A stretch of DNA of 54,040 bases from Candidatus Micrarchaeota archaeon (GCA_043810635.1 JBDRNY010000021.1:1-54040); one strand, 5' to 3'. Counted from the stretch's first letter, positions 725-44,976 are shown. Numbers and translations: made by a program. Notes: generated by a model from the sequence alone, not told the origin.

Positions 725-3700
725 ATGCAGAGTTTCGGAGTAATGGAAAGCCGATGCGGGAGGGTGGGGTTAGGTGTTTTTCTAGCTCTAATCTTATTTA
801 TATCTTTAGTTGCAGGGGCAGATTGCGAAGGCTCTCCTCCGTGTGATGGAAAAGAGTGCGCAGATGAAAACTTGGAATGTGTGGAAGCGGCGGGAAAATG
901 CACCTGCCAGTCAATATGCACTGAGCCTCCGAAACGCACATATATTGAAGCGTTTTATGAAGATTATAAGAGCACAAAAAATAAGGGCACCCTCGATATA
1001 AATGTTTTTTATATAGATGACAGCGGGCAGGTGCCTGAAAAAAAGCCAGTGGAAGGAGGACTTGTAATAATAGACAGCGGGGCATATGTCAAAGGAGGAG
1101 GGTACGACCCCTTTGGAGGGGCAGGTGCCAACAAAGTATGCAGAGCAACTACAGACAGCGAAGGAAAAATATTGGTTAATCTTCCCCACCCCTCAGGAGG
1201 GCAGAAAATAACGCACAGAATAATTTTTTGCCCTTATACAGATATGACAAGTGAGGGGGGGAAAGAGGATTTGGCAGTCTGCGCAAGGCTGTATGACAAT
1301 AATGCAGATGTTTATGAAAAAATCAATTGGCAGGAAATTCCAGTATGTGAAGGAAATCAGCCAGACCCTGAAAACAATATGCTGTTTAACGGGGAGGATG
1401 TAAAAAAGGCAGATAGGATAGGCCCCTCTGAAACATCTGTTGAAGCAATAAACAACAACCCTTCCGCAGCTGCCACCACATTTTGCTGGGCGCTTGCAAT
1501 TGTATTCGGGCTTCTTTTGTCTGCCTCATACACGGTTGGCAGAAACCCGCTGATGTTTCTTGACATGAACAGCATGCGCCAGGTGAAAATGAACAGAAAT
1601 TTTGGATATTATTTTCCAAGAACCCAGAATGTGAGCGTAAATGTTGAGGCGATTGCAAATACCATATACAGTGCTGCAAAAGTTGCAACCGCCAAAAAGG
1701 AAAAGAAGGGGGAGGGAAAGGAGGATGGAAAAAAGGAAGAGCCAAAGCAAAGGGAAGGGGAAAGCAATGAGGATTTTGAAGGAAGAAAGCTGGGTGAAAA
1801 AATTGCAGGTGAAATGGGTTCGTTTTCAATGGACGGCCTTCTTTCAGGAACATTTTTGGACAATAAATATGATTCTGCATATGCAAAATCAAGGGGAGGG
1901 ATAAGACAGGAGTTGCTGGCTCCTGTGCTTGGGGACCCGGCAAAAGGCGAAAATGTAGCAGGTGAAAACTTGTTTGGCGACAGCCCGTTTTTACGAGGCC
2001 TTGGAAGAGTGAGTGTAAGAATGCTTGCATCTGGAATGCTTGAAGGGGGAGTAAATCTTGTAGGAGGGGCAATAAAAGGAGGGCTGAAAGGGGGATTTAA
2101 AGGCGCTGTTAAAGGCATGAAATTTGGAAAAGCAGGCAGTTATGCAGGCATGAGGATATTGAGGGAAGGATACCGCCCGCTTGTGTGGGAGCTGCTCAAA
2201 GGAGGGGTGATGCTGGCTCCGGCATCAGATGAAACTGGTGCAGATGTGGAAGGCCCGGTTGCTGTAGGAGGAAAGTTTGAAGCTGTGGAAAAGCTTAAGA
2301 AAACAGTTGAAGGGAGAGAATACAGTGGAAAGTTTGATATAGCTGGAAATGAAAGCATTGGCTACACTGTTTCAGGAAAAATTGTTGCTTCAAAAAAATT
2401 GGAAGATACAAAAAAGAAATTAAGGAACCTTAAGAGATTTGTCCCTAGTGGTTCTTATCCAACCTTTTCAACCCGGGATAACGTTTATGCAATATTTGAT
2501 GATAAAGAAATTGCCAAACTTAATAAGATGCTGGCGGGGGAAAAAACAATAATAACAGATAAATTCGGAAGGAAATATTTAGTGGAAAAAAACTGGGATA
2601 TGTATAGCATGACAACAACTTTTGATATAACAATGGAAGGCACTAAGCTGAAAAGCGCTGAATTTACCAAAGACGGAAGAGTAAAGCTTGAGCTGTATGC
2701 TAAAACAACAGAGGATGGGTTTCCGGATTTAAAGAGCGAGGTGCTGACATATAATACAGATTATGCACTAAATATGGAAACAGGAAAAGTGCAGCTTGTA
2801 GACAATCTTTTAAGCAACCCGAGCCAGGGCGAATATTTCAAAACAAGCAGTGCAGGCACAATTGCATTCAACCCAAACACCCAGGAAATGATTACCCTTC
2901 AATCAGGGGAAAACTTTGCTGTCACAACACAAACAAGGCTTGTTTTGTCTTCAATATTCAGGGGGGAATGGATAGATGCATTGCAAGAGCTTGCAAAGCC
3001 GGTTACTGGAACAGTTGCCAGCTTGCTTGCAATAGGAAAAGGGCTTAAGGGAGAGTATGTTTTAAAAAAGGCTGAAAGAACATTTGGCAAAGGGTATGAG
3101 AGATTTAAGATAAAAAAAATATCGCAAAATAAAGGAATAGTTGTTGAATTGTTTCAAAATGCTGAAGGAGAACAGGAGGAAGGTAGGGAGGTTGGGACAT
3201 TTGAAAAAGGAAATATAAAATTTTCAGAAGAGTATGCTGGCTCGTTTGACAGCAATAGAATTTACAGGGTTGATGGAGAGAGCATTTTTGATGTAACAAC
3301 TGAAGTTAATGGCAAAACTACGCAAATAAACGGGACTGAAATTGACGGCACCAGAATAAATATTGGCGGGAAAGAGCTTGAAATAATAAATAAGATGATG
3401 CCTGATAAGGAGCTAAATGTCCAGATAATTGTGGACCCGAATAAACCAAGCAGGGCAACGGGAGAATTTGAAGTTGTGGCGCTAATATACCGCTCTGGTT
3501 ATGGCGTGGAAAAAATAACAGATGGAAAAGGGAATAAAATTGAATCAATAAATGCAAACGGAGTGGAGTATGGATTTGAGACAGGAAAAAACATGGAAGG
3601 CAAATCAGACAGCCATGTGCTTGCTGTTTCCCAGGTTGGAAAAGTTTCCGGAAATGTGGATGTGAATGCATGGGATTTGGTTATTGCAAAGCCAAACGGG

Positions 3701-5038
3701 GAATTGTATACGATTGACGGAAGGGCGGCGAAAAATTTTGATGAAGTGTATAAATCCATTTTATATGATGTTTATGGAATGAGCAGCAATGCAGAGCAGA
3801 TGGCAATGCAGCATAAAATGAATGACATGCTGCAAAAAAGCAATAAAATACTTAATGATGCGCAGCTGTCGTCAGAGCATGAAAAAGAACTGGATAATAT
3901 TGAAAAAGGGCTTAGAAGCCAGCTGCCTGAAAATGTAAAAGTTATGGACGGCACCCAGCTTAGGAAATTTGTTCTGGACGGGAGAGGTGCCAAGCTTACA
4001 GAAGCGCAGCAAAAATCATTGAACACGCTTATAGGCGTGGTCCATTACTCGGAATTTCAGTCTACAGATATGAAAGATTTGGAATCAACAATGTATATGT
4101 CAGGCTTTGTTGTAAGGAAGACAGCAAACACTCAGATTGTCAATTCAATGCTTCTTGAAAAATCAATCAGAAATGAGCTGAGGCAGGAATACGGGACCAT
4201 GGACATAAATGAGCTGCGTGCCATAGCGCAGAAGGGGACAGATTACGCAAAATTAGACCCATATTCTTTAGAGCCAACAAAAAATGAAATAAATGCAATC
4301 AAAAAGCTTAATGCGCTTAACAGCGGAATTGGAAGTGTGCTGGGGATATACAATACGCTCTCATCAGGTGAGCAAAAGCTTGCCAATAATATTGTGAAAG
4401 CGGAAATGGCAGACGTTGCCATGACAAGACATTCCGTATTGATGCAAGAATCTAATTTGGACAATATGGTTGAAACAAATCTTCGGCTGAAATCCGGAAA
4501 CCAGCATCTCGTTAAGATTACAAAAATAGAAAGGGAGGCGGCACAAAAGGCTGAGGAAAGCTTTGATAAAATGCAGGAAAAGCTGGGAAGGATTGATGAA
4601 ACTTTAGGCAAAAAAGTGCCTACAGTATTTGAAGAGCATAAAAGAAAAGTTGGAAGCAAAATAAGAATTGTCAAAGTTCCGACAGATTATAAACCGGAGA
4701 TAGTTGTAAACCAAAAAGCAATGGATGAATTTAGAAATGATGTTAAGGCATACCAAAGCCAGCAAAGAAAATTTGAGCAGAATATGAACAATATAAATGT
4801 TCTTAGAATGGCGGGAGATGCGATTGCAAATACTATGACTCCTGTACTTTCCAAAAAAAGAAAGTCAGGGGAATTGAGGGTGCTTATGAAGGAAACAAGC
4901 GAATTGGCATTGAACTATGCACGCCCGAGAGTTTTAGAAAAGAAAAAAGCCGAAATACTTGGGAAAATCCAGCAAAATATTGTAAGGATAAATAATATAT
5001 CCCAACAAGAAAAAGGGATTGAAAAGAAGAAAAAATAA
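725..5038 (+). CDS. Giant single-pass membrane protein (1437 aa) of unknown function, first gene of the cluster. It has a signal peptide, a ~220-aa Cys-rich ectodomain, one TM and a ~1160-aa Cys-free cytoplasmic domain.
   Basis: Long ORF. N-terminus is VGLGVFLALILFISLVAGA followed by CEGSPPCDGKECADENLECVEAAGKCTCQSIC. The TM is TFCWALAIVFGLLLSASYTVGRN. The remaining ~1160 aa contain no Cys, a Gly/Lys-rich segment (GGAIKGGLKGGFKGAVKGMKFGKAG) and a charged, coiled-coil-like C-terminal third. I see no recognisable enzymatic motif. Confidence 0.85.
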   Translation: MQSFGVMESRCGRVGLGVFLALILFISLVAGADCEGSPPCDGKECADENLECVEAAGKCTCQSICTEPPKRTYIEAFYEDYKSTKNKGTLDINVFYIDDSGQVPEKKPVEGGLVIIDSGAYVKGGGYDPFGGAGANKVCRATTDSEGKILVNLPHPSGGQKITHRIIFCPYTDMTSEGGKEDLAVCARLYDNNADVYEKINWQEIPVCEGNQPDPENNMLFNGEDVKKADRIGPSETSVEAINNNPSAAATTFCWALAIVFGLLLSASYTVGRNPLMFLDMNSMRQVKMNRNFGYYFPRTQNVSVNVEAIANTIYSAAKVATAKKEKKGEGKEDGKKEEPKQREGESNEDFEGRKLGEKIAGEMGSFSMDGLLSGTFLDNKYDSAYAKSRGGIRQELLAPVLGDPAKGENVAGENLFGDSPFLRGLGRVSVRMLASGMLEGGVNLVGGAIKGGLKGGFKGAVKGMKFGKAGSYAGMRILREGYRPLVWELLKGGVMLAPASDETGADVEGPVAVGGKFEAVEKLKKTVEGREYSGKFDIAGNESIGYTVSGKIVASKKLEDTKKKLRNLKRFVPSGSYPTFSTRDNVYAIFDDKEIAKLNKMLAGEKTIITDKFGRKYLVEKNWDMYSMTTTFDITMEGTKLKSAEFTKDGRVKLELYAKTTEDGFPDLKSEVLTYNTDYALNMETGKVQLVDNLLSNPSQGEYFKTSSAGTIAFNPNTQEMITLQSGENFAVTTQTRLVLSSIFRGEWIDALQELAKPVTGTVASLLAIGKGLKGEYVLKKAERTFGKGYERFKIKKISQNKGIVVELFQNAEGEQEEGREVGTFEKGNIKFSEEYAGSFDSNRIYRVDGESIFDVTTEVNGKTTQINGTEIDGTRINIGGKELEIINKMMPDKELNVQIIVDPNKPSRATGEFEVVALIYRSGYGVEKITDGKGNKIESINANGVEYGFETGKNMEGKSDSHVLAVSQVGKVSGNVDVNAWDLVIAKPNGELYTIDGRAAKNFDEVYKSILYDVYGMSSNAEQMAMQHKMNDMLQKSNKILNDAQLSSEHEKELDNIEKGLRSQLPENVKVMDGTQLRKFVLDGRGAKLTEAQQKSLNTLIGVVHYSEFQSTDMKDLESTMYMSGFVVRKTANTQIVNSMLLEKSIRNELRQEYGTMDINELRAIAQKGTDYAKLDPYSLEPTKNEINAIKKLNALNSGIGSVLGIYNTLSSGEQKLANNIVKAEMADVAMTRHSVLMQESNLDNMVETNLRLKSGNQHLVKITKIEREAAQKAEESFDKMQEKLGRIDETLGKKVPTVFEEHKRKVGSKIRIVKVPTDYKPEIVVNQKAMDEFRNDVKAYQSQQRKFEQNMNNINVLRMAGDAIANTMTPVLSKKRKSGELRVLMKETSELALNYARPRVLEKKKAEILGKIQQNIVRINNISQQEKGIEKKKK

Positions 5039-5056
5039 TTGGGAGGTTATGGCAGG

Positions 5057-6208
5057 ATGCTGAATGACTATATGGTTGCCCTTCCTTACGGAATTGCAAT
5101 CGGAAGCGCAATAGTTGCCCTTGCATATATGGCGGGCGCGTTTTTGCAGTCAAAACAGGCAAAAGCTTATGCAAAAACAGAGATGGGGGAGCTTGTACTA
5201 TCTGCAATTATTGTGGTTATTGCATTAAGCGTATACAGCTCGCAGGATATTAACATTGCACTAACAGGCAGTGCTGATATTCAGGGAGCGACAATAGACA
5301 GTATGAAAGTATATATGGAAAAGCCGCTAAACGATGCGTTTGTTTCCCTTGTAAGCTCAAGCTATTCATTAAGCAAATATATTTCATATAACTATAATAT
5401 CCAGCTGCCGCTTCCGGGCTTTTCACCCCAGACTGCCCAAAGCAAGGGGATAGGAGCATATCCCCTCAGCCTGCAACTTATTAGGGGAATTGATGCAATA
5501 TCACTGAACCTTTTGCTTGTAAGGGCAATGATGGTGCTTTATATTTTCCTTGAATTTGCATTCAAGCATATGCTTCTTCCTGCAGGAATTATTTTGCGCT
5601 TTATTCCGCCAACAAGAAAGATGGGCGCAATTTTAATAGGCACAGGGCTTGCAGTGCATCTGGCATTTCCTGCGGCGGTGGTATGGACAGGCTCTATGGC
5701 GCAGGATATTATGCCAAATTATGATGCACCCATAAGGGAGCTGGCAGACCCGGGAGATCCTGCATCTGCAGGAATTATCTGCAATGAAGTGGTGCAAACT
5801 GTTTATGGAATAGGGGATATGTTCGGGCCTTTGCTTATATGCATGACAGCATGCCTTGCAGCAACTGTAGGCTATCTTGCATGCGTGGGCTGGCCTTCAG
5901 TATGGCCTTTTACCACAGGCTCGGGATGCCTTGCAGGAGTATCAAGCGGATGGCAAATATACCAATATGCATTTCCCTTAACTGTTGGGCCAAACCTTGA
6001 GCTTTCAAGCATTGTGCTGACAGCAGAAAAGGCGGAAGAAATATTTGGAATAATTTTAGAGCAGATAATTCCTGCTGTAATGGAAAGGCATGTTGCAATA
6101 CTTATCATGGTAATTTTGCAGCTTACAGTTACTATTGTGCTTGCGCGGGCATTTTCCCAGGCAATAGGCGCAGAGGGTCAGATTTACGGGCTTAGCAGGT
6201 TGATATAA
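5057..6208 (+). CDS. Polytopic membrane protein, TM-core paralog 1 (no N-terminal signal peptide, small ectodomains)
   Basis: The ORF track starts at TTG 5039; ATG 5057 follows a GGAGG at 5042. It shares with paralogs 2-6 the TM hairpin (LAYMAGAFLQSKQAKAYAKTEMGELVLSAIIVVIAL), the core LLPAGIILRFIPPTRKMGAILIGTGLAVHLAFP and the C-terminal tail AIGAEGQIYGLSRLI. Confidence 0.85.
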   Translation: MLNDYMVALPYGIAIGSAIVALAYMAGAFLQSKQAKAYAKTEMGELVLSAIIVVIALSVYSSQDINIALTGSADIQGATIDSMKVYMEKPLNDAFVSLVSSSYSLSKYISYNYNIQLPLPGFSPQTAQSKGIGAYPLSLQLIRGIDAISLNLLLVRAMMVLYIFLEFAFKHMLLPAGIILRFIPPTRKMGAILIGTGLAVHLAFPAAVVWTGSMAQDIMPNYDAPIRELADPGDPASAGIICNEVVQTVYGIGDMFGPLLICMTACLAATVGYLACVGWPSVWPFTTGSGCLAGVSSGWQIYQYAFPLTVGPNLELSSIVLTAEKAEEIFGIILEQIIPAVMERHVAILIMVILQLTVTIVLARAFSQAIGAEGQIYGLSRLI

Positions 6209-6210
6209 AT

Positions 6211-7179
6211 ATGGAAAAAATACGCATGCTTGCATTGTTTTTTGCGGTTTTGTTTAGCATAAATATTGCATCAGCGCAAGATGTGTGCTTTGGGCAGACA
6301 ATGAACTGGGCATTGGAGCCGAGGTTTGCAATAGGCGGGGGGGCTCTTATAGGGTATGGAATTTTGATTATGGCATTTTTGTGCGTAGGCGCATATATGA
6401 TTGGAAAAGCTTTCAGCAAGCCGGAGTTTGTTGTGTGGGGCGCAAGCGAGGGAGTTACGCTCGTCTGGTCAATTCTGCTGATAATTGGAGTGCTGGCTGC
6501 ATTTATTTTTTCATGCGAGCTTTCCCAAAAAATTGCAGAAATAAACAACCCCAACAAAAGCCCGGCACATATGGCAACATTGGGCTTGAATGACTTGAAC
6601 AACAAATTTGGAATAACGATTGCAAAGGATTTGCAGGAGGATGCTATACATGACATGTTTGAGGGGATGTATTATGCATATTGGTCAATCCCTGCAATGG
6701 ACGGAGGAGGGCTTGCTTACAGGGCAAACAAGAGGGCATGGGCAACGCAGAGGGAGGTGCTTATAGATATCTATCTTCCGCTCAGCTATCTGCTGCATGC
6801 ACAAGAGCTTTTTCTTGAAATTTTGATGCCCGGTGTGATTGCAATTATTCTGCCTGCAGCGCTTTTCTTCAGGATGCTTTTTGTTACCCGGGATGTGGGA
6901 AATATTTTGATTGCTCTTTCCTTTTCAATATATTTTGCATTTCCGCTTGTGTATTTGCTCGCATTTTCTGCAACTGAAAACATGACAGCTGATTTTGAAG
7001 GGGATGAAAAAAACCCTTTTGAAAAAATGTCGCTTGCAAAAGATATGGTTGTTGGGGATGCGTTCCAAAAAATAGGGTATCTGGCGGCTGTTGCAGTTCT
7101 TTTGCCAAACCTTGCGCTTGTAATAGTTATTACAATGACAATGTCATTGTACAAGGCAATGAGAGGTATTGTTGCATGA
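6211..7179 (+). CDS. Polytopic membrane protein, TM-core paralog 2
   Basis: It has a signal-peptide-like N-terminus (LFFAVLFSINIASAQD), the TM hairpin GAYMIGKAFSKPEFVVWGASEGVTLVWSILLIIGVL and the core ILPAALFFRMLFVTRDVGNILIALSFSIYFAFP. Its stop overlaps the next start (ATGA at 7176). Confidence 0.85.
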   Translation: MEKIRMLALFFAVLFSINIASAQDVCFGQTMNWALEPRFAIGGGALIGYGILIMAFLCVGAYMIGKAFSKPEFVVWGASEGVTLVWSILLIIGVLAAFIFSCELSQKIAEINNPNKSPAHMATLGLNDLNNKFGITIAKDLQEDAIHDMFEGMYYAYWSIPAMDGGGLAYRANKRAWATQREVLIDIYLPLSYLLHAQELFLEILMPGVIAIILPAALFFRMLFVTRDVGNILIALSFSIYFAFPLVYLLAFSATENMTADFEGDEKNPFEKMSLAKDMVVGDAFQKIGYLAAVAVLLPNLALVIVITMTMSLYKAMRGIVA

Positions 7180-10100
7180 TATTGAATTTAGTCAAAAAAT
7201 TTGCGCCGGTTGTGTTGGCATTGCTCATTCTTGCTAGTGCAGCAAATTTTGCGCAAAAAAATGTAACCGAGCTGATTGAAGCGCAGATTCAAAACCCTCT
7301 TGCATACTGGGTTACAAATTATGAGGCGGTTGCCATTCTGGCCGCCATAATTGCAATTATTTTGGTGGCTTTGCTGTATTTTGCATCAAAATTCTTTGAA
7401 AGCGAGGAAATGGCAGGGCTTGCAAAAACAGAGCTTGTGCAGGCGGTTGCAGGAATTATTATACTGATAATTTTCCTTGCATTTGTCAATACATCAGACT
7501 GGCTCATAAACTATTCTGCTGAAAATATTAAGAGCCCGTGCCTTGACCCGAATTTCAATCCGCCTCCCCAGGCAACAACAATAAACAAATATGCTGCATG
7601 CTATACCCATAACCTGAAAGCAATGGCAGTAAGCATTGGAAAAAAAGCGCTCGGGGAGTCTGTTAAAGAGGCAAGAGAAGCATATTCAAGCTGGGGTTAT
7701 CAGAGCAATACAATATACCTGCTATACACTGGAATAAGCGGGAGGTTTAATGCGCACAAGAGGCTTGACTCTGAAATAAACGGGCTTGAATTTGATTTGG
7801 CAACAATATATATTACAAGCCTTGAGGCGCAGGAAAAATTTCTTAACAACATTGTGCCGGTGCTTGGGCCAAGCGCGCTTTTGATTGGAATTGTATTGCG
7901 CTCATTTTTCTTTACAAGAAAGCTTGGCGGGCTGCTTCTTGCAATAAGCATAGGGTTGATGATAATATTGCCTGCATGCTATCTTTTGGCATGGTACACT
8001 TTGCAGGTTGCGGCATATGGCGGGAAAGCAATAGGCGAGCCTGAAAGCTTATGCCCTGAAGGGTGCAAAGTGCTTCCGCCGTGGGGCTATTTGAAATCAA
8101 AAAATATTGATGGTGCGCAGCTTGCAATGGGCTTTTATGATGATGAACACAGGGTTGATGATTATGGAGTGTATTCTTTTGCAGATGTGGAAGAGATTAA
8201 TTTAAAGAGGGTGGAAAACGGAAAAGAGATGCTTACATTAAAAGACGGGGAAGCATGGATGGATGAAGAGAAAATTCAGGTTTGCTTCCCAAGGGACAAC
8301 TCCGGCTGGGGGAGTGCATTCAGTGCAGAGGATTCTGCAAACTGCCCTGCAGAATGCAGGTATTTGCCAACTCCAACAGAAATTAATTGCGACCAAAGCG
8401 CATGCGACAAAATTCCTGCAGCATGCAAAGCAGTAAGGGCAATGACAGAAGAGGATTTTGCCGACTATTGCACAGTAGAGAAAAACAAAGATTTTGCATG
8501 CTATTGCCCAGAAGACTGCATGCTTGATTTGCCTTTTGTTGAAGAGGATGCTGGTGCTGTAAACAAAGAAATGCTGGAAAGCAAATTTATGCAAATAAGC
8601 GAAAATGCAAACAAGTTTGCAGAAGATCCGCCGTTTGACTGTACAAAATGTCCGGTGCACTGCAGAGGTTATTATTCTGATATTGAGCCACAGGAAGTGA
8701 CCCATGCAGGGCAGGATAATGCCTGTGACAAGGAATGTGCAAACTGTTTTGAAGCAAAGCCTGATGTGCTTACAGGAATTCCTTCTTTGCGCACCACAAC
8801 ATGCAATTCCGAGCATACATGCGGAGACCCGTTAAGCGCCCGTGATGCGATTGCACAGGGAAGGCTTGATGTCTGCCCTATTGAATGCAGGGCAATTTTT
8901 GACGGGGTGGATGAAAAATACAAAGACCCGTATTATATTTATTATTGCGAGCAAAATTTCAAGAAAGTGTGTGAAGGCAGATGCCCTGAAAAATGCAAAA
9001 TCAAAATTTCAGATGTTGTTGCTATGGGAGGCTGCAGCTCTCCCCCAAAATTTGAAAATTTGGCAGGAAGAGCATGCACATATGAAGATGTAAAAGACGG
9101 GTGGGACGGAAACAATGCAAAATGCCTGATGGAAGCAGAAATTACTGCAAATTGCGCAAGATGCCCACTTGCGTGCAGGTTTGTAAACCCAAGCTCTATA
9201 CCAGAATACAAAGAAGATGACCTGGATACTGAGGAAGACGAATCAGAGCAGCTGGAGCTTAATGAAAACAATATTGAATTTTGCTCAGATCCGGATGTAA
9301 GAAGGTTTTGCACATGGGACAGCCCAAGGGATTATTGCAACTTAGGCGTGTGCGGGGTTGACAGGGAAACAGAAGGGCCTTTCTTGTGTGAAATTGAAGA
9401 CTTGTCATATAAATATTCGAATTTGCCGAATAATGAAGAATATTGCGGAACATGCTATACTATAAATAGTGCAAAAACAACAGGCCCGCAATGCCAGGTT
9501 TTGCTTTATTGGCAAAATGAAGAAGGAGAAATTCCTGCAGAATGCTCTGATGCTTGCAATCCTGGCACCACTAATGCCAGGGCGGGCGGGCAATGCAATG
9601 GATTTTGCTATCCAAGGCTTGAAATTCCTTCTGGCGGAAGCTGTGGGGAATATGATGAAAATAGCAGGGGTGAGGATGACAGGAGCATGGTAAACGGCGC
9701 GGCATGCCCCCTGAATTGCAGATATGATTATATGACAAAAAGCGGGGAAAAAATGCCGAATTATGCATTGCAAGCCTGTGGCTATGAATTAGATTTTTCA
9801 GACGGGCCGAAGGAGTGTGATACACGCTGTGAAGGAAGGGTTTATGGAACACGCAACAAAGACTGGTGCGAGGGAAGACGCAATGCAAATGCAGTCTGCA
9901 ATAGTGATGGCAGAACAAGCAGGGTATGGTATCACATAAATTCAGCGCCAGAAGTTCCAGATATGACAAGCTCATGCCCGTGTGAAGATGATAATGAATG
10001 CAATCAAAATACATGTGAGGATTCTAGAGGGGTTGAATACACAATAGGAAGGCTTCCAATTTATTCCTGCCAACGCCAGCAAACATATGATGGGTGGGAT

Positions 10101-11084
10101 GCAATTGTAAGGCGGGATACCGTAAAGGCAAATTATATAGAGTGCGGAACAATTGACAAAACAAATAATCAGGATTTGAATTTCTGCGGAAAGAAAACTG
10201 TTTTAAGAAGAGATGTTGTAGGGCTGGCTTCAGAATGCAAGGCAGAATATAATGCAAGGGCTGTTGCATGCCTGCCCAAGCCGCCGCTGGATTTGAAATC
10301 AGGCTATTGGACTGACGAGCAGGTAGCAAGGTTTGAAGCATCAATTCAAAGAGGGGAGCCTGTACTCGGGGTGGACGGCGGATTGGATGGTGATGGAAGC
10401 GATGTGAATTGTGTGAGTTGCCCCCTTCCTTGCAGGGTAAATGAAAATACAGATTATCAAGTATGTAAAGAATATGCCGAACACTCGAATGCAATAGACT
10501 GTGAAAGCCAGGTGCAATGTGATTTGCGCGCAATGCAGAACTCTCCGCCCGAAGTATACAACCCGATTGGATATTGTGGGGTTGATGGGGAGGCATTTAA
10601 CCTTGATAATAATTTATGTGAAAAGCCTCTTGCAGATAAGAGTGCTGCATGCCCTGCAAGATGCAGGCTTTCAATTTCAGGAGCGCTTCCAGTAGGGTGT
10701 GGAGAAGGGGAAATTGCTGATGCATGCAAATACCTTAAGCAGGAGTGTACAGCACAGGTGAAGGGAGCGCCATGCGCTGAATGCGACAAATGCGCTGTTG
10801 TGGAATGCACTGCAAAGCCATATGCATGGACAGAAAGCTGCACTGAGCTGTGCACAGCAGATGACTTGGAGTTAAGCCTCGGGCAACAAACCCCAGAAGC
10901 CCTGCTTTCAACAATTGAAGGGGCAAATGCAAGATACTCTGACTGGCAAACTCTTGGAGCGCTTGGGGTTGCATCATTTGTTCTTCCAATATTTTGCATG
11001 ATCATAACCATTGCATTTATCAGAACCCTCTCGCCATTGCTTGGGGGAGATATTGAAATTCCGGGGATAATGAAGTTGATATAA
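7176..11084 (+). CDS. Polytopic membrane protein, TM-core paralog 3, with a ~950-aa Cys-rich ectodomain inserted between the core and the last TM (1302 aa)
   Basis: It has the TM hairpin LLYFASKFFESEEMAGLAKTELVQAVAGIIILIIFL and the core VLRSFFFTRKLGGLLLAISIGLMIILPACYLL. The ectodomain holds about 80 Cys (manual count) and ten C-P-x-x-C-[RKM] motifs. The final TM and tail read FVLPIFCMIITIAFIRTLSPLLGGDIEIPGIMKLI. Confidence 0.85.
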   Translation: MILNLVKKFAPVVLALLILASAANFAQKNVTELIEAQIQNPLAYWVTNYEAVAILAAIIAIILVALLYFASKFFESEEMAGLAKTELVQAVAGIIILIIFLAFVNTSDWLINYSAENIKSPCLDPNFNPPPQATTINKYAACYTHNLKAMAVSIGKKALGESVKEAREAYSSWGYQSNTIYLLYTGISGRFNAHKRLDSEINGLEFDLATIYITSLEAQEKFLNNIVPVLGPSALLIGIVLRSFFFTRKLGGLLLAISIGLMIILPACYLLAWYTLQVAAYGGKAIGEPESLCPEGCKVLPPWGYLKSKNIDGAQLAMGFYDDEHRVDDYGVYSFADVEEINLKRVENGKEMLTLKDGEAWMDEEKIQVCFPRDNSGWGSAFSAEDSANCPAECRYLPTPTEINCDQSACDKIPAACKAVRAMTEEDFADYCTVEKNKDFACYCPEDCMLDLPFVEEDAGAVNKEMLESKFMQISENANKFAEDPPFDCTKCPVHCRGYYSDIEPQEVTHAGQDNACDKECANCFEAKPDVLTGIPSLRTTTCNSEHTCGDPLSARDAIAQGRLDVCPIECRAIFDGVDEKYKDPYYIYYCEQNFKKVCEGRCPEKCKIKISDVVAMGGCSSPPKFENLAGRACTYEDVKDGWDGNNAKCLMEAEITANCARCPLACRFVNPSSIPEYKEDDLDTEEDESEQLELNENNIEFCSDPDVRRFCTWDSPRDYCNLGVCGVDRETEGPFLCEIEDLSYKYSNLPNNEEYCGTCYTINSAKTTGPQCQVLLYWQNEEGEIPAECSDACNPGTTNARAGGQCNGFCYPRLEIPSGGSCGEYDENSRGEDDRSMVNGAACPLNCRYDYMTKSGEKMPNYALQACGYELDFSDGPKECDTRCEGRVYGTRNKDWCEGRRNANAVCNSDGRTSRVWYHINSAPEVPDMTSSCPCEDDNECNQNTCEDSRGVEYTIGRLPIYSCQRQQTYDGWDAIVRRDTVKANYIECGTIDKTNNQDLNFCGKKTVLRRDVVGLASECKAEYNARAVACLPKPPLDLKSGYWTDEQVARFEASIQRGEPVLGVDGGLDGDGSDVNCVSCPLPCRVNENTDYQVCKEYAEHSNAIDCESQVQCDLRAMQNSPPEVYNPIGYCGVDGEAFNLDNNLCEKPLADKSAACPARCRLSISGALPVGCGEGEIADACKYLKQECTAQVKGAPCAECDKCAVVECTAKPYAWTESCTELCTADDLELSLGQQTPEALLSTIEGANARYSDWQTLGALGVASFVLPIFCMIITIAFIRTLSPLLGGDIEIPGIMKLI

Positions 11085-12241
11085 TGAAAGCCAGGCATGA
11101 AAATAAAAAAAGGAAGAGGAGTATATGGCGCACACCGTTAATTGCAGTTTTGACTATTATGTTTCTTCTGCCGGCAGCTTTTGCAGCGCCAAAATGGGAA
11201 GTTGCAGTTTCGGCTGCAATTGCAATATCAATTCTCGGGGCAGCAATCGCATATCTGGCAGTGCATGCAATGCGGCTTGAGGTGATGAAGCCTGTTGTTT
11301 ATGATGAAATCGGGCAGGTTGTGCTGAATGTAATTATAATCGGGGTGATTATTCTCTCGCTCAGCTATTTTGATGATTCAATAAAAAAGTTTGTATTCGG
11401 ATTTAGCCAGCCTTCAGATACATGCAAGGAATGCTCCAAAGATACAGAGCAATATATTTATTGCAAAGCAAGCGCAAAAAATCCAGATTCGTGCAATTTT
11501 GACCCGAATGCGCCCGTGGAACCGCCTGCTGAGAATTTGCGGGGGTGGGCTTTGAACCTAAATGACCGCTCGCAAAAGCTTTTGGAAAAAAGAATTGACA
11601 ATATGGTGGAATATTCAAATGCAATAGGAGAGCAAAGCTCGCGGAGCGGGATGTGCAACTTTCTTGCAATAGGGTTTACAATTGCGGGATGCTCTTCTTG
11701 GGGAGTATTGCGGGGACCAGTAGGCCAGATGATAAATGTTGCAGGCATGGGAATGATGGATTTGGAAGCTGAAAGGATTTTGCTTCAGTTTGCGCAAAAT
11801 ACTGTGCTTGCACTTTTTCTGCCGCTGGGAATTTTGATGCGTGCGTTGTATATTACAAGGAAGGCGGGCTCTACTTTGATTGCGCTTGCGCTTTCGTTTT
11901 ACTTAATATTTCCTGCAGTAATTTTGATGGGGAATGCTGTTGCAGATGCGTTTATCAAAAATTATCAAGATTATGGAGACATATCAGGACTTGATGCAGG
12001 AAGCATAGAATGCGACCCGTTTGACCCGGATTTGAGGGATTTGAAAAACCAAATAAAGCAGGTTAATGAAGGCGGGAAAAATGATGAGCCTTCAAAATCC
12101 GAAACCCTGATATTCTATGTGCTTGGGCGGAATGTTATGATAACCGCGCTTGCGCTTACAGCAACTCTCGGGGCGGCAGGCGCACTTGGAAAAGGGCTGG
12201 GAGCGGAAATTTATATTAGTGCAATAGCAAGGCTGAGCTGA
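11084..12241 (+). CDS. Polytopic membrane protein, TM-core paralog 4
   Basis: The start overlaps the previous stop (TAATG). It has a signal-like N-terminus (LTIMFLLPAAFAAPK), the hairpin IAYLAVHAMRLEVMKPVVYDEIGQVVLNVIIIGVII, the core FLPLGILMRALYITRKAGSTLIALALSFYLIFP and the tail GLGAEIYISAIARLS. Confidence 0.85.
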   Translation: MKARHENKKRKRSIWRTPLIAVLTIMFLLPAAFAAPKWEVAVSAAIAISILGAAIAYLAVHAMRLEVMKPVVYDEIGQVVLNVIIIGVIILSLSYFDDSIKKFVFGFSQPSDTCKECSKDTEQYIYCKASAKNPDSCNFDPNAPVEPPAENLRGWALNLNDRSQKLLEKRIDNMVEYSNAIGEQSSRSGMCNFLAIGFTIAGCSSWGVLRGPVGQMINVAGMGMMDLEAERILLQFAQNTVLALFLPLGILMRALYITRKAGSTLIALALSFYLIFPAVILMGNAVADAFIKNYQDYGDISGLDAGSIECDPFDPDLRDLKNQIKQVNEGGKNDEPSKSETLIFYVLGRNVMITALALTATLGAAGALGKGLGAEIYISAIARLS

Positions 12242-12468
12242 TGGAAAAAATAAATAAAATGCAGAAAGATGCCCGCATTTTCGCGAAAAAAGCCAGCTAC
12301 AGCTTCTTGCTTGCAATTATGATTGCGCTTCTTTTTTCAAATTTTGCATTTGCAGAAATAATAGCAGAAGTGCAATATTCGGTAAATGACCAGCCGCCAG
12401 GGCAACAGCCTCCTGCAGAAATGCAGAGCAATGATATGCTTCAAACATTTGTTTGGCCCTCATGCGAG

Positions 12469-12478
12469 CCCCCCCCCC
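12469..12478 (+). repeat. Poly-C tract (C10) causing frameshift 1 in paralog 5
   Basis: Sequence reads gag-CCCCCCCCCC-tcatgc. With 9 C the frame reads ...WPSCEPPPSCSGQFYVTYTYSCGG. The tract is flanked by the direct hexamer TCATGC. Confidence 0.9.
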
Positions 12479-13208
12479 TCATGCTCAGGGCAGTTTTATG
12501 TTACTTATACCTATTCCTGCGGAGGGGAAGATGTAGATATTTCGGAATATGATGTTCAGGCAGGCGACCCTATATGGGAATTTTTTATTGCAAAATCATA
12601 CCCGCAATGCCAGAATTTGGATGTTTTGCAAAAAATTGAAGTAAAAGACACAAACCCCCCGGAAGATGAGCTAATTCCGCCCGTTCAAAATCCAATTATA
12701 ATAAACTGGGTGAACCAAAACCTTCCGCCAGATGTTGCAATAGACATGATTAGCCCTGAAGAGCGTGCATACACTCCGGGAGAAGATACGGAAATAGATA
12801 TTTATATTGAGTTTCGGGATTCTGATGATTTGGCAAAAAGGCTGATGACTAATGTACAAATAATGCATGACGGAGAAATAACGGGCAGTGTTTCCTGCAT
12901 TCCCGCGCTCGGAGGGCTGCAATGCACAGAGCAGGGCGATTTGGATAAAATGATCGAAACGCTTGGCGGAAGTTTTATCCACTACGTGATGCGAATAGAC
13001 AGCTCAACATATACACAAGATATTTTGGTTAAGGCAAATGTACAGGATCCGCAGGGGCTGCAAGATGCAGCAGATATGATAATTACTTCTGGAGATTTGC
13101 CAAAAAAGCCTGAAATTTTAGGTTATACTCCTGATGAACCGAGAAATGATGAGGAAATAATTGTTAGTGCAAGGCAGGATGAATTAAATGTTGGAAATCC
13201 AAACAGGC

Positions 13209-13216
13209 ATATATAT
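13209..13216 (+). repeat. (AT)4 dinucleotide repeat causing frameshift 2 in paralog 5
   Basis: Sequence reads c-atatatat-ac. Removing one AT unit gives cat ata tac aaa gtg tat gat = HIYKVYD, which matches the next tandem repeat. Confidence 0.85.
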
Positions 13217-16364: not shown

Positions 16365-16368
16365 GAGG

Positions 16369-19300
16369 ATGAAAATGGAAGATATAAAAAAAACTGCACT
16401 TTTGTTTGCGATTTTGGCAGCAATTGCCCTCTTTGCATCAGGATGCACCCAACAGCCGAATACAAACCTATCATATGCAGACTGCTGCCAATATTCAGAA
16501 AAAAATTATGAATGCTTTATGGTGATGGAGGGGGATGAGCCGAAAAGAGATGGTGACGGAAGAATCGAGCTTAGTGAATGCGGCATATGCGAAAGATGGG
16601 ATGATTCAAGCGGGCTGTTGTATGACAATGCAGGAAATATTTTGCTGGATAAAAAGAAAATTCCTATCACCCCGGCAGAATGTGAAAATAATTGCAATTT
16701 CCAAAAAGCTGACTGCACAAACGAGGATGAGAGCGGAAACTGCTACCTTGTTGAAAACAACAAAATAAACCAAGATGTTGTTGTTGCCCCGATTTGCAGG
16801 GTTGCACCCGGAGACCCCTGCACCCAAAACGAATGCTCTGCAATGATATGCTCTGAGCAAAAACCAAGAGTAAGGCTTGCAACAAATGAGCAGGGGCTGA
16901 ATGCAATGGCTGAGAAGGGGAGCAGTGCAAGCAAGGATGTGGATGATGTTGGCGGGCTGAAGGGGATGATGTGCACATTTGACAAAATGAGCTCAAAAAC
17001 AACAAGGTTGCTAAAAAAAGGAGACGGATTTATAAATTCATTCAGGCTTGGAATTTCCGGGAGCTTTTCAGATTATGAGCAGGCGCGCTTTTACTTCCCG
17101 CCTTCGGATTTTTATTGCGGAAAGCTGGGGGAAAGGGCTGTTGTTGACAGGTTTGTAAATTATTTGGATGATGGAAAGGTATTGCCTCCGTTTAGGGGCG
17201 GAAATTTTATGGCAAAATTGCATTACTGCCAAAGGGATGGTGAAAAAGATGCAGATGATTCATATTGGTATTGCACAAATCCGCCCGAGCTGAGCGGCCT
17301 GAAATTTATTGTAGGGGAATATGCTTCAGATGAGGCTGCAGAATATGCTTGCGCAAATATTTGCAATTATTGGCAGGGAAAAACCTGCGAAAACAACAAC
17401 GAGCTTTATACTATTGATATTAATATTGCGCCACCGGGGGCAGATGAAAATATAGAAAAATTTGTAGATTATACAAGATATTATAGTTTGCTTGAAAAAG
17501 CTTATCCGATTCCGGACGCCCTTGATTATTACCATATAATGCCGCCCCTTGATGCAGGTGAGGAAGATATGGCAGCGGAGCTGCTAAAGCCGGGACCTGC
17601 AGGGGCACGGGTGTTTGAATGCACTGAAAGCACAGATTGCATGTCAAACATATGCAAAAAAGATGAGTTTAGCACAACCGCATGCTTTGACAAAAATACT
17701 GGCGAGAGGCTGGATTGCGGATGCAGGCTTATTTATGACTGTGATTTTGCATATTTGTGCGATCAGCTATATAAGAAAAGAACTGTTAAGTGGACAACAT
17801 GCTATAAATTAAGAAATGAATTGTGTGCATACAGGATTGGAGAGGGATATGTGCTTGCATGCGAATATAATGCAGTAGATAACAGAAAAGAATTTAGTGC
17901 ATTAAACGATTTTGGAGTGATTACGCTTGAAGATGACAAAATAAGGACTGGAGAATTTTGGGAGTTTGAGCAAACAAAAGACGAGCCACTGGAAATAGGG
18001 ATAATGCAAATGCTTGGGAAAAAAGAAAGGTGTTACAACAAAAACCTTGACCCGCAATGGAAAGACAAAAAAGAAGGAAGATGTCCCTCTGGGTATGAAA
18101 AAGAATTTTATTACAAATGGGTGAATGACCCTACAAGCGTTCGGGGATGTGTTGATGCGGAAGGAGGTTTTCGTGCATGCATAGAAGAGCATTGGGGCGC
18201 CTCGTTTGCGCCGGTTCCGTATGAGCAAATAATAATTGACACATACGGAGGGGGGACAAGCTTTTACACGGCCCCAGATATTACTTTTGAACAATTAAAG
18301 CAAAGAATGCCTGTTATTGATGCGTGTGAAATGCAATATGGAACAGATGTTATAGAATCAGAAACAAATGAAGGGACGCTGGAGGAAGCGCTTAAAAATT
18401 CAGGAGGGTATCCGCAGGATGAGAATGCAAAAAGAATAAACAAAATGTGGCGGCTTAATCGGCAAGGGGAAAATTCAGGGTTTGGAAAATGCATGCGCTC
18501 TGGAAAAGGGGATTATGACATGCCGTCGGTATTGGAATACGGAGTTTGCGAGCCTTGCGGCACCACTCTTTCATTGGCGTTTCAGAAAATTACAACTCAT
18601 GACAAAAGCTATTGCCCAACAACATGCAACACAGTATTTCCAATGTGCTTGTGTGATGATGAAGTGGAAGAACCCAGGGCGCACTTTATTTATTTGCATG
18701 AAACAGCTCCAAAAACATATCCAGAGTATGGATTTATTTCAAGCAAAATAGACGAATACATGGCTGCAGGCATAATGCCTGTGCTTGATATAAAAGAGTA
18801 TGAAATAACCACATCAGCACTTGGTTTGGACAAATATACTAGGTATTGGGATGCAGATGGAGAGGGGAGAGAATGGTGCGAGAATATGGGGGGGGAATGG
18901 GAAGAAGAGGGAAACTTTCTTGATTATTCAGACAGCTGCACCTGGGAAATTGGGCTTGGCGGAGATTATTTTCTAAAAGGATTGGCTGACGGGCGCTCTG
19001 CATCTATTCTTATAGTGGATGATTTGGAAGGGGTGGAAACCAAGCAGAGAATAAGCAATGTAAGATCACAGTGCCCGGATTGCATGCTTGCGCTTGAAAT
19101 AAAGCTTGAGGAGGGAGAGGTGCAGAAGGCAATGGAAGACGGCACCTACCCGCAAAGAGTTTCAGATATAATAAGAGAGTTTAGCGAAGAAAAGGAATAT
19201 GATGAATACAGATTTTCAGATCCTTGGGGAGGGATGCCAAAGCCGCCGCAGATAGCAGATGTGGATATTTTAGTGCTTAATATGAATTTGGAAGGTGCAA

Positions 19301-20229
19301 GCTTTGGAAATAAAGAAAAGCTGGATAAGGAAGTGAAAAACCTTGTAAATATGTCAAGAAAAATTTTGCAGCATGTTGGCTGGAAAACATTGTGGAAGTT
19401 TGAGGGGAATGAAAAAGCATACAAACACCAGGAATTTTACAAAACGCTTTGGGCAAACGAATATGAGATGAGTTTGTATGGTGTTGTGGGGATATTGCTT
19501 CCTCCAATGGATGAGCTTATTTACGGAAAGGACATAAAAGATGCAGAGAGTGCATTTTGCGCAGCAGAAGAAGGCTCTACAGAATTTTTGCATCCGGAAA
19601 ATGTGGTTGCATTGCAGCAGATTTATCCAAGGGAAGGATGCCAGTGCAACCCATGCACTGAAACCGAAATTAAACTTGACCAGTGCAAAGAGAGCGCAAG
19701 ACTTTGCCTTGACGGAATGCCATGCAAAAGTTATAATGAAGTGAGCGGGGAGTGGGATTTGCCCCCCTCAGGAAAATGCCAGGATGCATGTATTAGGGCA
19801 GATGGAGATTATATGAAAAAGTGCGAAGATGTGCAATTAGAAGTCACGTGCAGGGCTATGAGGTCAGATAATGAGTTGTTAAGATTATGCAGTGGGGCGC
19901 AGGATTTGCCTGAGTGCGATATTATTACATTTAAGATTAGCGAGCTTGTTACAAATCCGTTCTTAAGCCCGTACAGGGCAGAATTTATTGGGGGCCTACC
20001 TGCAAAAGAGCGCTGCTATATAGAGGAGGAAGATGCAAAATTCAGCTACCGCTTGCAAATATCTGCAAGGTCGTTTTCAGAACCCATGATATATCCAACT
20101 TATGGGGCAAACACAACAGAGTGCTCAAGGCTTAAGCTTACAGATGAGGATGTTGACACCTGCAACTGGGATTATAGAATTCCGTTGCCCATAAGAAAGA
20201 CTGCATGGACATGCACAATTTCAGGATAA
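16369..20229 (+). CDS. Giant Cys-rich secreted lipoprotein (1286 aa) of unknown function, last gene of the cluster
   Basis: It has a lipobox-like signal (LFAILAAIALFASGC). There are dozens of Cys throughout and no further TM segment. The start lies 4 nt after the stop of paralog 6. No recognisable domain. Confidence 0.85.
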   Translation: MKMEDIKKTALLFAILAAIALFASGCTQQPNTNLSYADCCQYSEKNYECFMVMEGDEPKRDGDGRIELSECGICERWDDSSGLLYDNAGNILLDKKKIPITPAECENNCNFQKADCTNEDESGNCYLVENNKINQDVVVAPICRVAPGDPCTQNECSAMICSEQKPRVRLATNEQGLNAMAEKGSSASKDVDDVGGLKGMMCTFDKMSSKTTRLLKKGDGFINSFRLGISGSFSDYEQARFYFPPSDFYCGKLGERAVVDRFVNYLDDGKVLPPFRGGNFMAKLHYCQRDGEKDADDSYWYCTNPPELSGLKFIVGEYASDEAAEYACANICNYWQGKTCENNNELYTIDINIAPPGADENIEKFVDYTRYYSLLEKAYPIPDALDYYHIMPPLDAGEEDMAAELLKPGPAGARVFECTESTDCMSNICKKDEFSTTACFDKNTGERLDCGCRLIYDCDFAYLCDQLYKKRTVKWTTCYKLRNELCAYRIGEGYVLACEYNAVDNRKEFSALNDFGVITLEDDKIRTGEFWEFEQTKDEPLEIGIMQMLGKKERCYNKNLDPQWKDKKEGRCPSGYEKEFYYKWVNDPTSVRGCVDAEGGFRACIEEHWGASFAPVPYEQIIIDTYGGGTSFYTAPDITFEQLKQRMPVIDACEMQYGTDVIESETNEGTLEEALKNSGGYPQDENAKRINKMWRLNRQGENSGFGKCMRSGKGDYDMPSVLEYGVCEPCGTTLSLAFQKITTHDKSYCPTTCNTVFPMCLCDDEVEEPRAHFIYLHETAPKTYPEYGFISSKIDEYMAAGIMPVLDIKEYEITTSALGLDKYTRYWDADGEGREWCENMGGEWEEEGNFLDYSDSCTWEIGLGGDYFLKGLADGRSASILIVDDLEGVETKQRISNVRSQCPDCMLALEIKLEEGEVQKAMEDGTYPQRVSDIIREFSEEKEYDEYRFSDPWGGMPKPPQIADVDILVLNMNLEGASFGNKEKLDKEVKNLVNMSRKILQHVGWKTLWKFEGNEKAYKHQEFYKTLWANEYEMSLYGVVGILLPPMDELIYGKDIKDAESAFCAAEEGSTEFLHPENVVALQQIYPREGCQCNPCTETEIKLDQCKESARLCLDGMPCKSYNEVSGEWDLPPSGKCQDACIRADGDYMKKCEDVQLEVTCRAMRSDNELLRLCSGAQDLPECDIITFKISELVTNPFLSPYRAEFIGGLPAKERCYIEEEDAKFSYRLQISARSFSEPMIYPTYGANTTECSRLKLTDEDVDTCNWDYRIPLPIRKTAWTCTISG

Positions 20230-35572: not shown

Positions 35573-35709
35573 TGCCAAGGGAGGGATTTGAACCCTCGGC
35601 TTCCAGATTTCTCAGAGAGCCATTATTCATCATTAAGCAAAAATGCTTTCGGCACTCATACGGCTTTGCATATGAGTCTGGCACTCTAACCAAACTGAGT
35701 TACCTTGGC
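35573..35709 (-). tRNA. tRNA-Met (anticodon CAT; elongator type, or Ile2-type CAU) with a 62-nt intron at position 37/38
   Basis: Manual fold on the minus strand: acceptor GCCAAGG/CCTTGGC, D arm ACTC/GAGT, anticodon stem CCAGA/TCTGG with loop CTCATA-[intron 35609-35670]-A, T arm GAGGG-TTCAAAT-CCCTC, discriminator A. The G1:C72 pair and the anticodon stem argue against an initiator. Confidence 0.85.
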
Positions 35710-44850: not shown

Positions 44851-44976
44851 ACAAAATTACTGAATTTTGTGTGACTTGCGCTGCAAGCGCAAGCTGAGCA
44901 CTTAAATTTCATAGCTTTAATCTGAAAGCTGGCAACTAAAACTACTTTTAAAAATACTAGATATGTTATAACACAC

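Follow-up and report, generated by a model that had tools for sequence, protein, structure and literature searches.

A lineage-specific, cysteine-dense extracellular domain with a short C-P-x-x-C-[R/K] hallmark in a candidate envelope complex of Micrarchaeota

The window analyzed in this work, a stretch of 54,040 nucleotides (nt) from a Candidatus Micrarchaeota archaeon (GCA_043810635.1 JBDRNY010000021.1:1-54040), harbors six neighbouring open reading frames (ORFs) that encode a common membrane core, designated P1 to P6. The subject of the study is the third paralogue, P3 (7176..11084, plus strand), a stop-free ORF of 1302 codons whose translation contains 84 cysteines. Eighty of them are found within a domain of 956 amino acids (aa 285-1240, nt 8028-10895) located between hydrophobic helix 4 and the last helix of the protein, at a density of one cysteine per 11.95 residues. 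This ectodomain is acidic, with 172 aspartates and glutamates versus 93 lysines and arginines and an isoelectric point (pI) of 4.4. In the remaining ORFs of the window the cysteine content is mostly 0-2% and never above 3%, compared with 6.5% in P3 and 5.1% in G2, the gene that follows P6 (16369-20229). A previous annotation made from the DNA alone (henceforth, the sequence-only reading) had described an acidic ectodomain of about 950 residues with about 80 cysteines, one per 12 residues or so, inserted into a "paralog 3" between positions 8040 and 10900. The counts given above bear out all these statements, including the label of the gene; the domain does lie there, and its limits are corrected to 8028-10895.

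The ten heptapeptides of the form C-P-x-x-C-[RKM] listed by the sequence-only reading are all present in the ectodomain exactly as given (Table 1). Their spacing had been estimated as 50-150 aa and is more irregular: the successive gaps are 97, 54, 48, 75, 36, 60, 181, 238 and 77 aa, a range of 36-238. When the ectodomain was shuffled 20,000 times with its composition preserved, CPxxC[RKM] appeared 0.043 times on average, with a maximum of 2, compared with 10 observed copies; the shorter pattern CPxxC averaged 0.40 in the shuffled sequences, with a maximum of 4. Altogether, 16 Cx3C pairs are found in the 956 residues. The ectodomain has no N-x-S/T sequon (around 5 would be expected), and none is found in its closest homologue, P0002; distant orthologues have up to 23.

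Alignment of the six paralogues shows what they have in common: a signal peptide, a Glu conserved after helix 1, a hairpin (helix-loop-helix) of the form P..R.....R..G..L.......P and a last helix that precedes an LGG[DE] tail. The ORFs of the locus abut or overlap by 1-4 nt. A scan of GTDB with one genome per species yielded 143 matching stretches, of which the best 79 loci were examined. The order P1-P2-P3-P4-P5-P6-G2 is maintained in nearly all of them, and in almost every locus P3 (~600-1800 aa) exceeds the other five paralogues in length. In all lineages the P3 tail that follows the last helix conforms to S-P-x-L-G-G-D-[IV]-E-I-P-G-[LI]-x-[KR]-[LI]-I; P1, P4, P5 and P6 show a weaker L-G-[GA]-[DE] version, and P2 lacks the tail.

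Two further genes, G1 and G2, flank the paralogues. G2 contains a lipobox at the end of its signal peptide. A search for the pattern [LVI][ASTG][GAS]C recognized it in 37 of 48 orthologues, and several of the others end in F-G-C, which is outside the pattern used; G2 has no CPxxC[RK] motif and no detectable similarity to the P3 ectodomain. The product of G1 has ~1,150 cytoplasmic residues rich in Lys and Glu and gave no family or PDB match. G1 abuts P1 in the window and in locus L001; other genomes have it downstream or encode it on the opposite strand. A peculiarity of the window is that P5 is interrupted by a change of frame, its two parts (12386-13300 and 13222-15189) being ORFs that overlap. 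In relatives P5 is a single protein of 975-1102 aa that aligns across both ORFs, which indicates a frameshift that may be a sequencing error, a pseudogene or a case of recoding. The nine ORFs of the locus (725-20229) are poor in N-glycosylation sequons, with 12 observed and ~33 expected.

Table 1. Genes of the locus and parts of P3, with positions in the window (aa, amino acids; AF2, AlphaFold 2; pLDDT, predicted local distance difference test)
Feature	Position	Strand	Description	Basis or remark
G1	725..5038	+	1437 aa; signal peptide, short Cys-containing outer part, one transmembrane helix	
P1	5039-6208	+	same membrane core	
P2	6211-7179	+	same membrane core	
P3 gene	7176..11084	+	1302-aa membrane protein, third of six tandem paralogues; overlaps P2 by 4 nt and P4 by 1 nt	ORF, translation
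P3 signal peptide (aa 1-25) and membrane core	7176..8027	+	four hydrophobic helices, ~130-aa helical outer loop with conserved C122/C142, cytoplasmic loop FFFTRKLGG	paralogue alignment; AF2 pLDDT 77-88
P3 ectodomain	8028..10895	+	aa 285-1240, 956 aa, 80 Cys, pI 4.4	
Motif 1, LCPEGCK (aa 293)	8052..8069	+		C-P-x-x-C invariant in all 17 first-round homologues
Motif 2, NCPAECR (aa 390)	8343..8360	+		
Motif 3, YCPEDCM (aa 444)	8505..8522	+		
Motif 4, KCPVHCR (aa 492)	8649..8666	+	C489 ahead, CxxCPxxC form	
Motif 5, VCPIECR (aa 567)	8874..8891	+	inside aa 552-612 (nt 8829-9011), the only part of the ectodomain modelled with confidence	
Motif 6, RCPEKCK (aa 603)	8982..8999	+		
Motif 7, RCPLACR (aa 663)	9162..9179	+	C660 ahead	
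Motif 8, ACPLNCR (aa 844)	9705..9722	+		
Motif 9, SCPLPCR (aa 1082)	10419..10436	+	C1079 ahead	
Motif 10, ACPARCR (aa 1159)	10650..10667	+		C-P-x-x-C invariant in all 17 first-round homologues
P3 last hydrophobic helix (aa 1258-1283) and conserved C-terminal tail	10947..11081	+	tail SPLLGGDIEIPGIMKLI	
P4	11084-12241	+		paralogue alignment
P5	12386-15189	+	frame-shifted near 13205-13220	
P6	15186-16364	+		AF2 model pLDDT 76
G2	16369..20229	+	1286 aa, 65 Cys, lipobox LFASGC; always after P6	

The recurrence of CPxxC in the ectodomain is that of a short element. When the six-residue core of the ten copies was kept fixed and the flanks were shuffled, the scores of non-overlapping pairs of windows barely dropped (z = 1.0-2.9), and the best real pair of flanks was no better than the best shuffled pair. 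Comparison of the ectodomain with itself by BLAST produced no off-diagonal match, and the same was true of a shuffled sequence, which makes this comparison uninformative. At the DNA level, repetition is limited to the stretches of 19-28 nt that encode the motif; a recent DNA duplication was considered as its origin and rejected. The recurring unit is a motif of 6-13 residues, or at most a loose four-Cys mini-module, C-x(4-9)-C-x(1-3)-C-P-x2-C-[RK]. The sequence-only reading had envisaged a disulfide-knotted module repeated every 50-150 aa; a periodic module of this sort is not supported, while the part of that proposal that concerns disulfides finds support in the data presented below.

The motif is specific to the family, and no copy was found in the genes next to P3. 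All first-round homologues (16/16) have the architecture of P3, with 4-13 CPxxC motifs each compared with 0.15-0.6 expected, and 288 motifs were counted in 35 orthologues where 18 would be expected. In 107 family members, 765 CPxxC motifs were found. The residue after the motif is Arg in 59% and Lys in 21% of them, and a cysteine is found at position -3 in 40%, giving the form CxxCPxxC; the core shared by the copies can be written as [C-x2]-C-P-x2-C-[R/K]-hydrophobic. The next cysteine usually comes 9-14 residues after the motif, and other Cys spacings vary. In compact homologues a loose unit of four cysteines is seen, with a Cx3C every 22-45 residues. A search with a profile of the module, as the sequence-only reading had proposed, was made with a hidden Markov model (HMM) of the mini-module: 141 sites were detected among 3,967 ORFs from 81 loci, and all were in P3 orthologues. 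The same profile found nothing among PDB sequences even at an expectation value (E) ≤ 10. The fixed-spacing tandem modules that characterize EGF, laminin-EGF, TNFR, furin-like and Giardia VSP repeats are not seen in P3, as indicated by the flank test and by the variable Cys spacing.

Evidence on the state of the cysteines was obtained by alignment of 15 P3 orthologues with 30-41% identity. Invariant cysteines are 53 out of 84, and pairwise identity is 90% in Cys columns, compared with 29% in the other columns of the ectodomain and 40% in the membrane core. The number of ectodomain cysteines varies from 69 to 90 and is even in 14 of the 15 orthologues (binomial p ~5e-4). Of the even counts, seven are divisible by 4 and the other seven leave a remainder of 2; hence the unit of change is two, a disulfide-like behavior that differs from that of Cys4 metal sites. 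Certain cysteines are gained or lost jointly (634 and 650; 481 and 531; 293 and 1175; and a set of six at 738, 760, 773, 790, 807 and 1032). The second cysteine of the motif is sometimes lost alone, as observed for C496 in three orthologues and for C1086 in four, and so the two cysteines of one CPxxC motif are probably bonded to different partners. An independent check is provided by G2, whose orthologues have an even number of cysteines after the lipobox Cys in 33 of 37 cases (p = 5e-7); this pattern suggests that G2 is a lipid-anchored protein with all its other cysteines in disulfides. Altogether, these observations support the view that the cysteines of the P3 ectodomain behave as disulfide partners and not as metal ligands.

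Residues 103-1302 of P3 were modelled with AF2 using 19 sequences. The membrane core was predicted with a pLDDT of 77-88. Within the ectodomain, residues 552-612 (pLDDT 72-80) form a small helical unit that contains motifs 5 and 6. In the six motifs, out of ten, that were mapped on the model with DSSP, the "xxC" part is a short helical turn, followed in several cases by a bridge residue. Foldseek searches with the P3 model returned noise only (best E = 1.1).

Homologues of P3 have a narrow distribution. The closest ones are found in Micrarchaeota genomes, and the best 79 loci are nearly all labelled as Micrarchaeota, Micrarchaeia, Anstonellaceae or Bilamarchaeaceae; for seven the label is merely generic or reads "(I)ainarchaeum sp.". 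A phmmer search of 1.84 billion representative proteins with the ectodomain gave only 22 matches at E ≤ 0.001: the full-length ones have the same design, mostly with ten motifs, and the rest are fragments. Further word-indexed searches added 2 new P3 relatives and 23 P6 orthologues. The complete order P1-P6 is found in three loci (L025, L066 and L074) that are labelled "Candidatus (I)ainarchaeum sp.", and a P6 orthologue (P0058) is labelled Marsarchaeota. Either the locus extends past Micrarchaeota or these bins are mislabelled.

As in the sequence-only reading, which could assign no known domain and had EGF, TNFR and furin-like families in mind, database searches did not place the ectodomain. 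Pfam (E ≤ 10) contained no family for the ectodomain or for three homologues, and none of the EGF, laminin-EGF, TNFR, furin-like or Giardia VSP kinds for G2; NCBIfam had no match to the ectodomain. The P3 family profile matched no PDB sequence (E ≤ 1), PDB searches with the six paralogues of the window, P6 orthologues, G1 and G2 yielded nothing relevant, and a profile of mixed paralogues gave only two chance matches (E = 0.19 and 4.4). The possibility that G2 and P3 share one Cys-rich domain was considered and rejected, as the HMM of the P3 ectodomain matches no G2, G1 or other paralogue. In the searchable literature we came across no earlier account of either the locus or the domain; a preprint on "cysteine-rich repeats" was discarded as a precedent because it deals with unrelated eukaryotic repeats, as was the S-layer protein of Ca. 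Micrarchaeum harzensis, another protein, which is poor in sulfur (10.1101/2021.04.28.441871). Taken together, the data support the conclusion that the P3 domain is extracytoplasmic, Cys-dense and outside described families: it represents an undescribed, Micrarchaeota-restricted family of probable disulfide scaffolds. Across lineages the length of the ectodomain ranges from 260 to 1213 aa, more than four-fold. All subfamilies have in common only the portions of the ectodomain that lie near the membrane, namely motifs 1-3, C603 of motif 6, motif 10 and the C-terminal Cys cluster; the middle of the domain is lineage-specific.

The membrane core of P1-P6 shows remote resemblance to VirB6 and its archaeal homologues CedA and CedE. 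The latter has been described with five transmembrane helices, and the two paralogues have been proposed to act together (PMC11868833). When searched against NCBIfam, P6 of the window matched CedE (E = 0.0022) and CedA (E = 0.016) at the hairpin made of helix 3, a loop and helix 4. CedE was matched by 10 and CedA by 5 of 69 P6 orthologues, and each of them by 4 of 120 orthologues of P1, P2, P4 and P5, with a best E of 1.4e-4. These were the only recurrent NCBIfam families (23 member-hits in 189 orthologues), all others being singletons or doubletons. Pfam TrbL/VirB6 was not matched by the paralogues of the window. An AF2 model of P6 built with 27 sequences (pLDDT 76.3; predicted template modelling score 0.69) had chain 8rt9_F, from the R388 stalk complex, as its top Foldseek match among 350,542 PDB chains; the 272 residues of this chain point to TrwI/VirB6 (342 aa) and not to TrwJ/VirB5 (226 aa). 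The topology of the core, as judged from hydropathy, the paralogue alignment and the AF2 models, also agrees with that described for CedE and with that of A. tumefaciens VirB6: an outer N-terminus, about five hydrophobic helices, a large outer region after helix 2 and an inner C-terminus. In the model of P6, helices are found at 65-89, 93-128, 206-254, 258-285 and 339-374, and the outer region (129-205) is helical/beta.

In view of these likenesses, we consider VirB6 ancestry of the membrane core somewhat more probable than not. If that homology, which is unproven, holds, P3 would be an "extended VirB6"-type protein, with a hydrophilic domain of 956 aa between helices 4 and 5. Extended VirB6 proteins possess large hydrophilic domains whose function is unexplained, and tandem VirB6 paralogues occur in Ehrlichia (PMC12857230).

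The firm part of our interpretation is a lineage-specific, extracellular domain that has the short motif C-P-x2-C-[R/K] as its hallmark and that, to judge from its cysteines, is stapled by disulfides. The motif, the conservation and pairing statistics of the cysteines, the restriction of the family to Micrarchaeota and the fixed gene order are shown by the sequences themselves. We further propose, with a probability of roughly 0.55, that the ectodomain is the surface module of an extended-VirB6-like envelope complex. The domain would be folded, acidic and held together by some 40 disulfide bonds, inserted in the last outer loop of the protein, between helices 4 and 5. Each C-P-x-x-C-[R/K] motif, to judge from the models, would form one helical turn that carries two half-cystines, with a basic residue next and then a hydrophobic one in extended conformation, and would staple neighbouring segments of a scaffold that is not periodic and evolves fast. 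Loops that evolve fast and vary in length while the cysteines that hold them are conserved would suit a surface in contact with the environment or a host. P1-P6 and the putative lipoprotein G2, we infer, most likely assemble into a single hetero-oligomeric complex of the envelope that would act at the cell surface and in which the P3 ectodomain and G2 would be exposed, and the exposed part might span the space under the S-layer and contact a host cell.

Several observations weigh against this interpretation. One is the low quality of the AF2 prediction for the ectodomain, with a mean pLDDT of 50.5 and values under 50 over most of its length; neither its fold nor its disulfide connectivity is given by the model. 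Cysteine parity is not clearly even in distant subfamilies (21/35 and 16/24), whose counts are blurred by uncertain limits of the domain and by an additional Cys-rich extension at the N-terminus. By their labels, many source genomes were recovered from groundwater or sediment, habitats in which the stability of extracellular disulfides cannot be taken for granted. As to the membrane core, P6 of the window scores 15-18 bits compared with curated cut-offs of 330-400 (CedA, NF041796; CedE, NF053657), and the match to 8rt9_F is sub-threshold (E = 0.034, probability 0.93, template modelling scores 0.24/0.32, root mean square deviation 11 Å). No similarity was detected by hhalign between the P6 family and single sequences of Agrobacterium tumefaciens VirB6 and R388 TrwI. 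The latter result is, however, only weak counter-evidence, as a search of the PDB with A. tumefaciens VirB6 itself gave no chain at E ≤ 0.01, not even TrwI, which shows how far the sequences of this family have diverged. Lastly, genes for a VirB4/CedB-type ATPase, a pilin or a VirB5-like protein were looked for throughout the 54-kb window and, in 79 genomes, up to 7-10 kb from the locus, and none was found.

The main alternative is that the locus is purely structural. P1-P6 and G2 would then be a static anchor or spacer for the S-layer and the pseudo-periplasm, P3 would be a rigid pillar that takes no part in host contact or transport, and the likeness to VirB6 would be convergent or irrelevant. 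The genomic setting agrees with such a role: the locus is chromosomal, lies beside housekeeping genes (NMD3, tRNA-His, proteasome, exosome) and is found in nearly every Micrarchaeota species sampled, with no ATPase linked. Furthermore, Micrarchaeota have an S-layer with unresolved anchoring (10.1101/2021.04.28.441871), and the VirB6/CedA signals are sub-threshold. The ectodomain, however, varies in length from 260 to 1213 aa and has 29% identity outside Cys columns, and an exposed, diversifying surface fits such divergence better than a fixed spacer. Besides, both the recurrent CedA/CedE matches and the VirB6 top fold match would be coincidence. We therefore regard a structural role alone as unlikely, if still a serious contender, and the two alternatives that concern the ectodomain itself as less likely than this one.

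One of these is that the ectodomain is a very divergent member of a known Cys-rich repeat family (furin-like/EGFR, TNFR, laminin-EGF, Giardia VSP-like) and forms a rod of small disulfide modules. Its Cys density of 6-9% and the repetition of the motif would suit such a rod, as would the compact homologues, which have about four cysteines per unit and one Cx3C per ~22-45 aa; strings such as C-P-x-x-C-K are indeed found in furin-like regions. This origin seems improbable given the irregular Cys spacing outside the motif, the lack of Pfam families at E ≤ 10, the empty PDB searches (E ≤ 1 with the family profile, E ≤ 10 with the mini-module) and the fact that the full-length proteins among the only 22 phmmer matches all have the architecture of P3. 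The other alternative, an array for metal binding or redox activity at the cell surface, had been raised by the sequence-only reading. The CPxxC pairs would in that case either chelate metal ions or alternate between the thiol and the disulfide state, for instance to sequester metals, attach to minerals or exchange electrons. Cysteine pairs four residues apart and followed by a basic residue could chelate soft metals, a strongly acidic domain could bind cations, and many of the habitats, as labelled, are metal-rich groundwater or sediment. Against such chemistry, cysteines change in twos, with even counts in 14/15 orthologues and no preference for multiples of four, and loss of the second motif Cys alone (C496, C1086) would destroy a chelating pair. 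Nor does the ectodomain contain any CxxCH or CxxCxxCxxxC, and it has only 6 His; the signal peptide is of the Sec type, with no twin-arginine (Tat) motif of the kind used to export proteins already loaded with a cofactor. The absence of cluster and heme motifs and of a Tat signal separates P3 from ferredoxin-type Fe-S proteins and multiheme c-type cytochromes, and neither metal domains nor thioredoxin-fold families gave a match; moreover, the C-x3-C spacing is not that of thioredoxin-type oxidoreductases (DsbA, thioredoxin, glutaredoxin). On these grounds a metal or redox array is the most improbable of the alternatives.

For the attachment of DPANN archaea such as Micrarchaeota to their hosts, and for the traffic of material between the two, the locus described here offers a concrete, phylum-wide candidate: seven to eight genes in fixed order, whose membrane subunits look remotely like the VirB6/CedA channel-platform proteins of conjugation and DNA import, and of which the P3 ectodomain would be the largest exposed part. 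There is a real chance that the P3 ectodomain is part of the host-interaction apparatus of Micrarchaeota. Cryo-tomography has revealed intercellular tubes between a cultivated Micrarchaeon and its host, to which no genes have been assigned (PMC11329633). A more speculative reading, which we consider unlikely, is that P1-P6 and G2 make up the conserved machine of Micrarchaeota for host interaction or intercellular transfer. It would consist of a hetero-oligomeric ring of six diverged VirB6-like subunits whose VirB4-type motor was lost or never acquired, and of exposed P3 and G2 that would cross the S-layer and form or tip the intercellular tubes, with the loops between CPxxC[RK] staples setting host specificity. 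Since the locus is present in cultivable relatives, localization and proteomics are feasible. In turn, the diagnostic motif C-P-x2-C-[R/K] can be used to find and type proteins of the P3 family.

Other features of the window can be summarized as follows. Housekeeping genes include those for proteasome alpha, SBDS, Rrp4/41/42, NMD3 and a class II tRNA synthetase. A tRNA-His gene (580-652) lies directly upstream of G1; a 137-nt tRNA match on the minus strand (35573-35709), found by Rfam and not by ARAGORN, probably contains an intron, and a 5S rRNA gene is found at 44738-44851. In many Micrarchaeota loci a gene for a Lon_C protein of ~560-650 aa lies 2-3 genes downstream of G2 (for example, L013:21795-23522, L016:21314-23074, L029:20583-22283 and L047:20815-22609), and a small AAA_18 kinase-like P-loop gene recurs upstream of the locus; neither of them adjoins the locus in the window. 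An ORF of 1121 aa (35870-39235), with no Pfam match and a C-terminal hydrophobic helix, has 107 N-x-S/T sequons compared with 30.5 expected, and its product is thus probably a heavily N-glycosylated S-layer or surface protein. Finally, a MacB/FtsX-type ABC exporter set occupies 46935-51992 on the minus strand, with two permeases that contain MacB_PCD and FtsX domains, an ABC ATPase (51273-51992) and a 527-aa protein with an NPCBM_assoc domain.

Comparison with known systems places P3 at some distance from each of them. Furin-like/EGFR, TNFR and Giardia VSP rods have a very high Cys content, short Cys motifs, an extracellular scaffold and variable loops; the signature of P3 is, in contrast, C-P-x2-C-[RK] (Cx3C) and not CxxC, its spacing is irregular, and the domain is inserted in a polytopic membrane protein. 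Small Tim chaperones are helical hairpins of ~10 kDa with exactly two Cx3C, in which both thiols lie on one face of a helical turn and each of them bonds a different partner on a neighbouring segment. The independent loss of the second Cys of some motifs suggests different partners in P3 as well; no homology is implied, and P3 differs in its 16 Cx3C within 956 aa, its proline in second position and the basic residue that follows the motif. Among DPANN archaea, the SPEARE proteins of Nanohaloarchaeota are very large, lineage-specific surface proteins proposed to act in host interaction, with protease, adhesion and nuclease-type domains. Unlike P3, they are not built on a polytopic VirB6-like core, and no sequence relation to P3 was seen.

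The closest likenesses concern the membrane core. CedA and CedE are also archaeal membrane proteins, and the matches to them, where mapped, are always at the helix 3-loop-helix 4 hairpin; however, they have ~260 aa and no ectodomain, act with the CedB/CedD ATPases and the CedA1 pilin as partners, and are UV-induced in Sulfolobales. The extended VirB6 proteins include the large paralogues of Rickettsiales, such as the four in Ehrlichia, and the VirB6-like proteins of 700-900 aa of Gram-positive MPF_FA systems. The Micrarchaeota locus differs in that it is archaeal, contains six paralogues in fixed order and has a Cys-rich disulfide scaffold as extra domain; there is no significant sequence match, and no genes for VirB4, VirB2, VirB5, VirB8 or a coupling protein are found near the locus. 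Like P3, extended VirB6 proteins combine a core of about five helices with a large hydrophilic domain in central or C-proximal position, and they can be encoded by several tandem paralogues in an obligate symbiont. In this sense, the locus would be an archaeal parallel to the unexplained arrays of extended VirB6 paralogues found in obligate intracellular bacteria.

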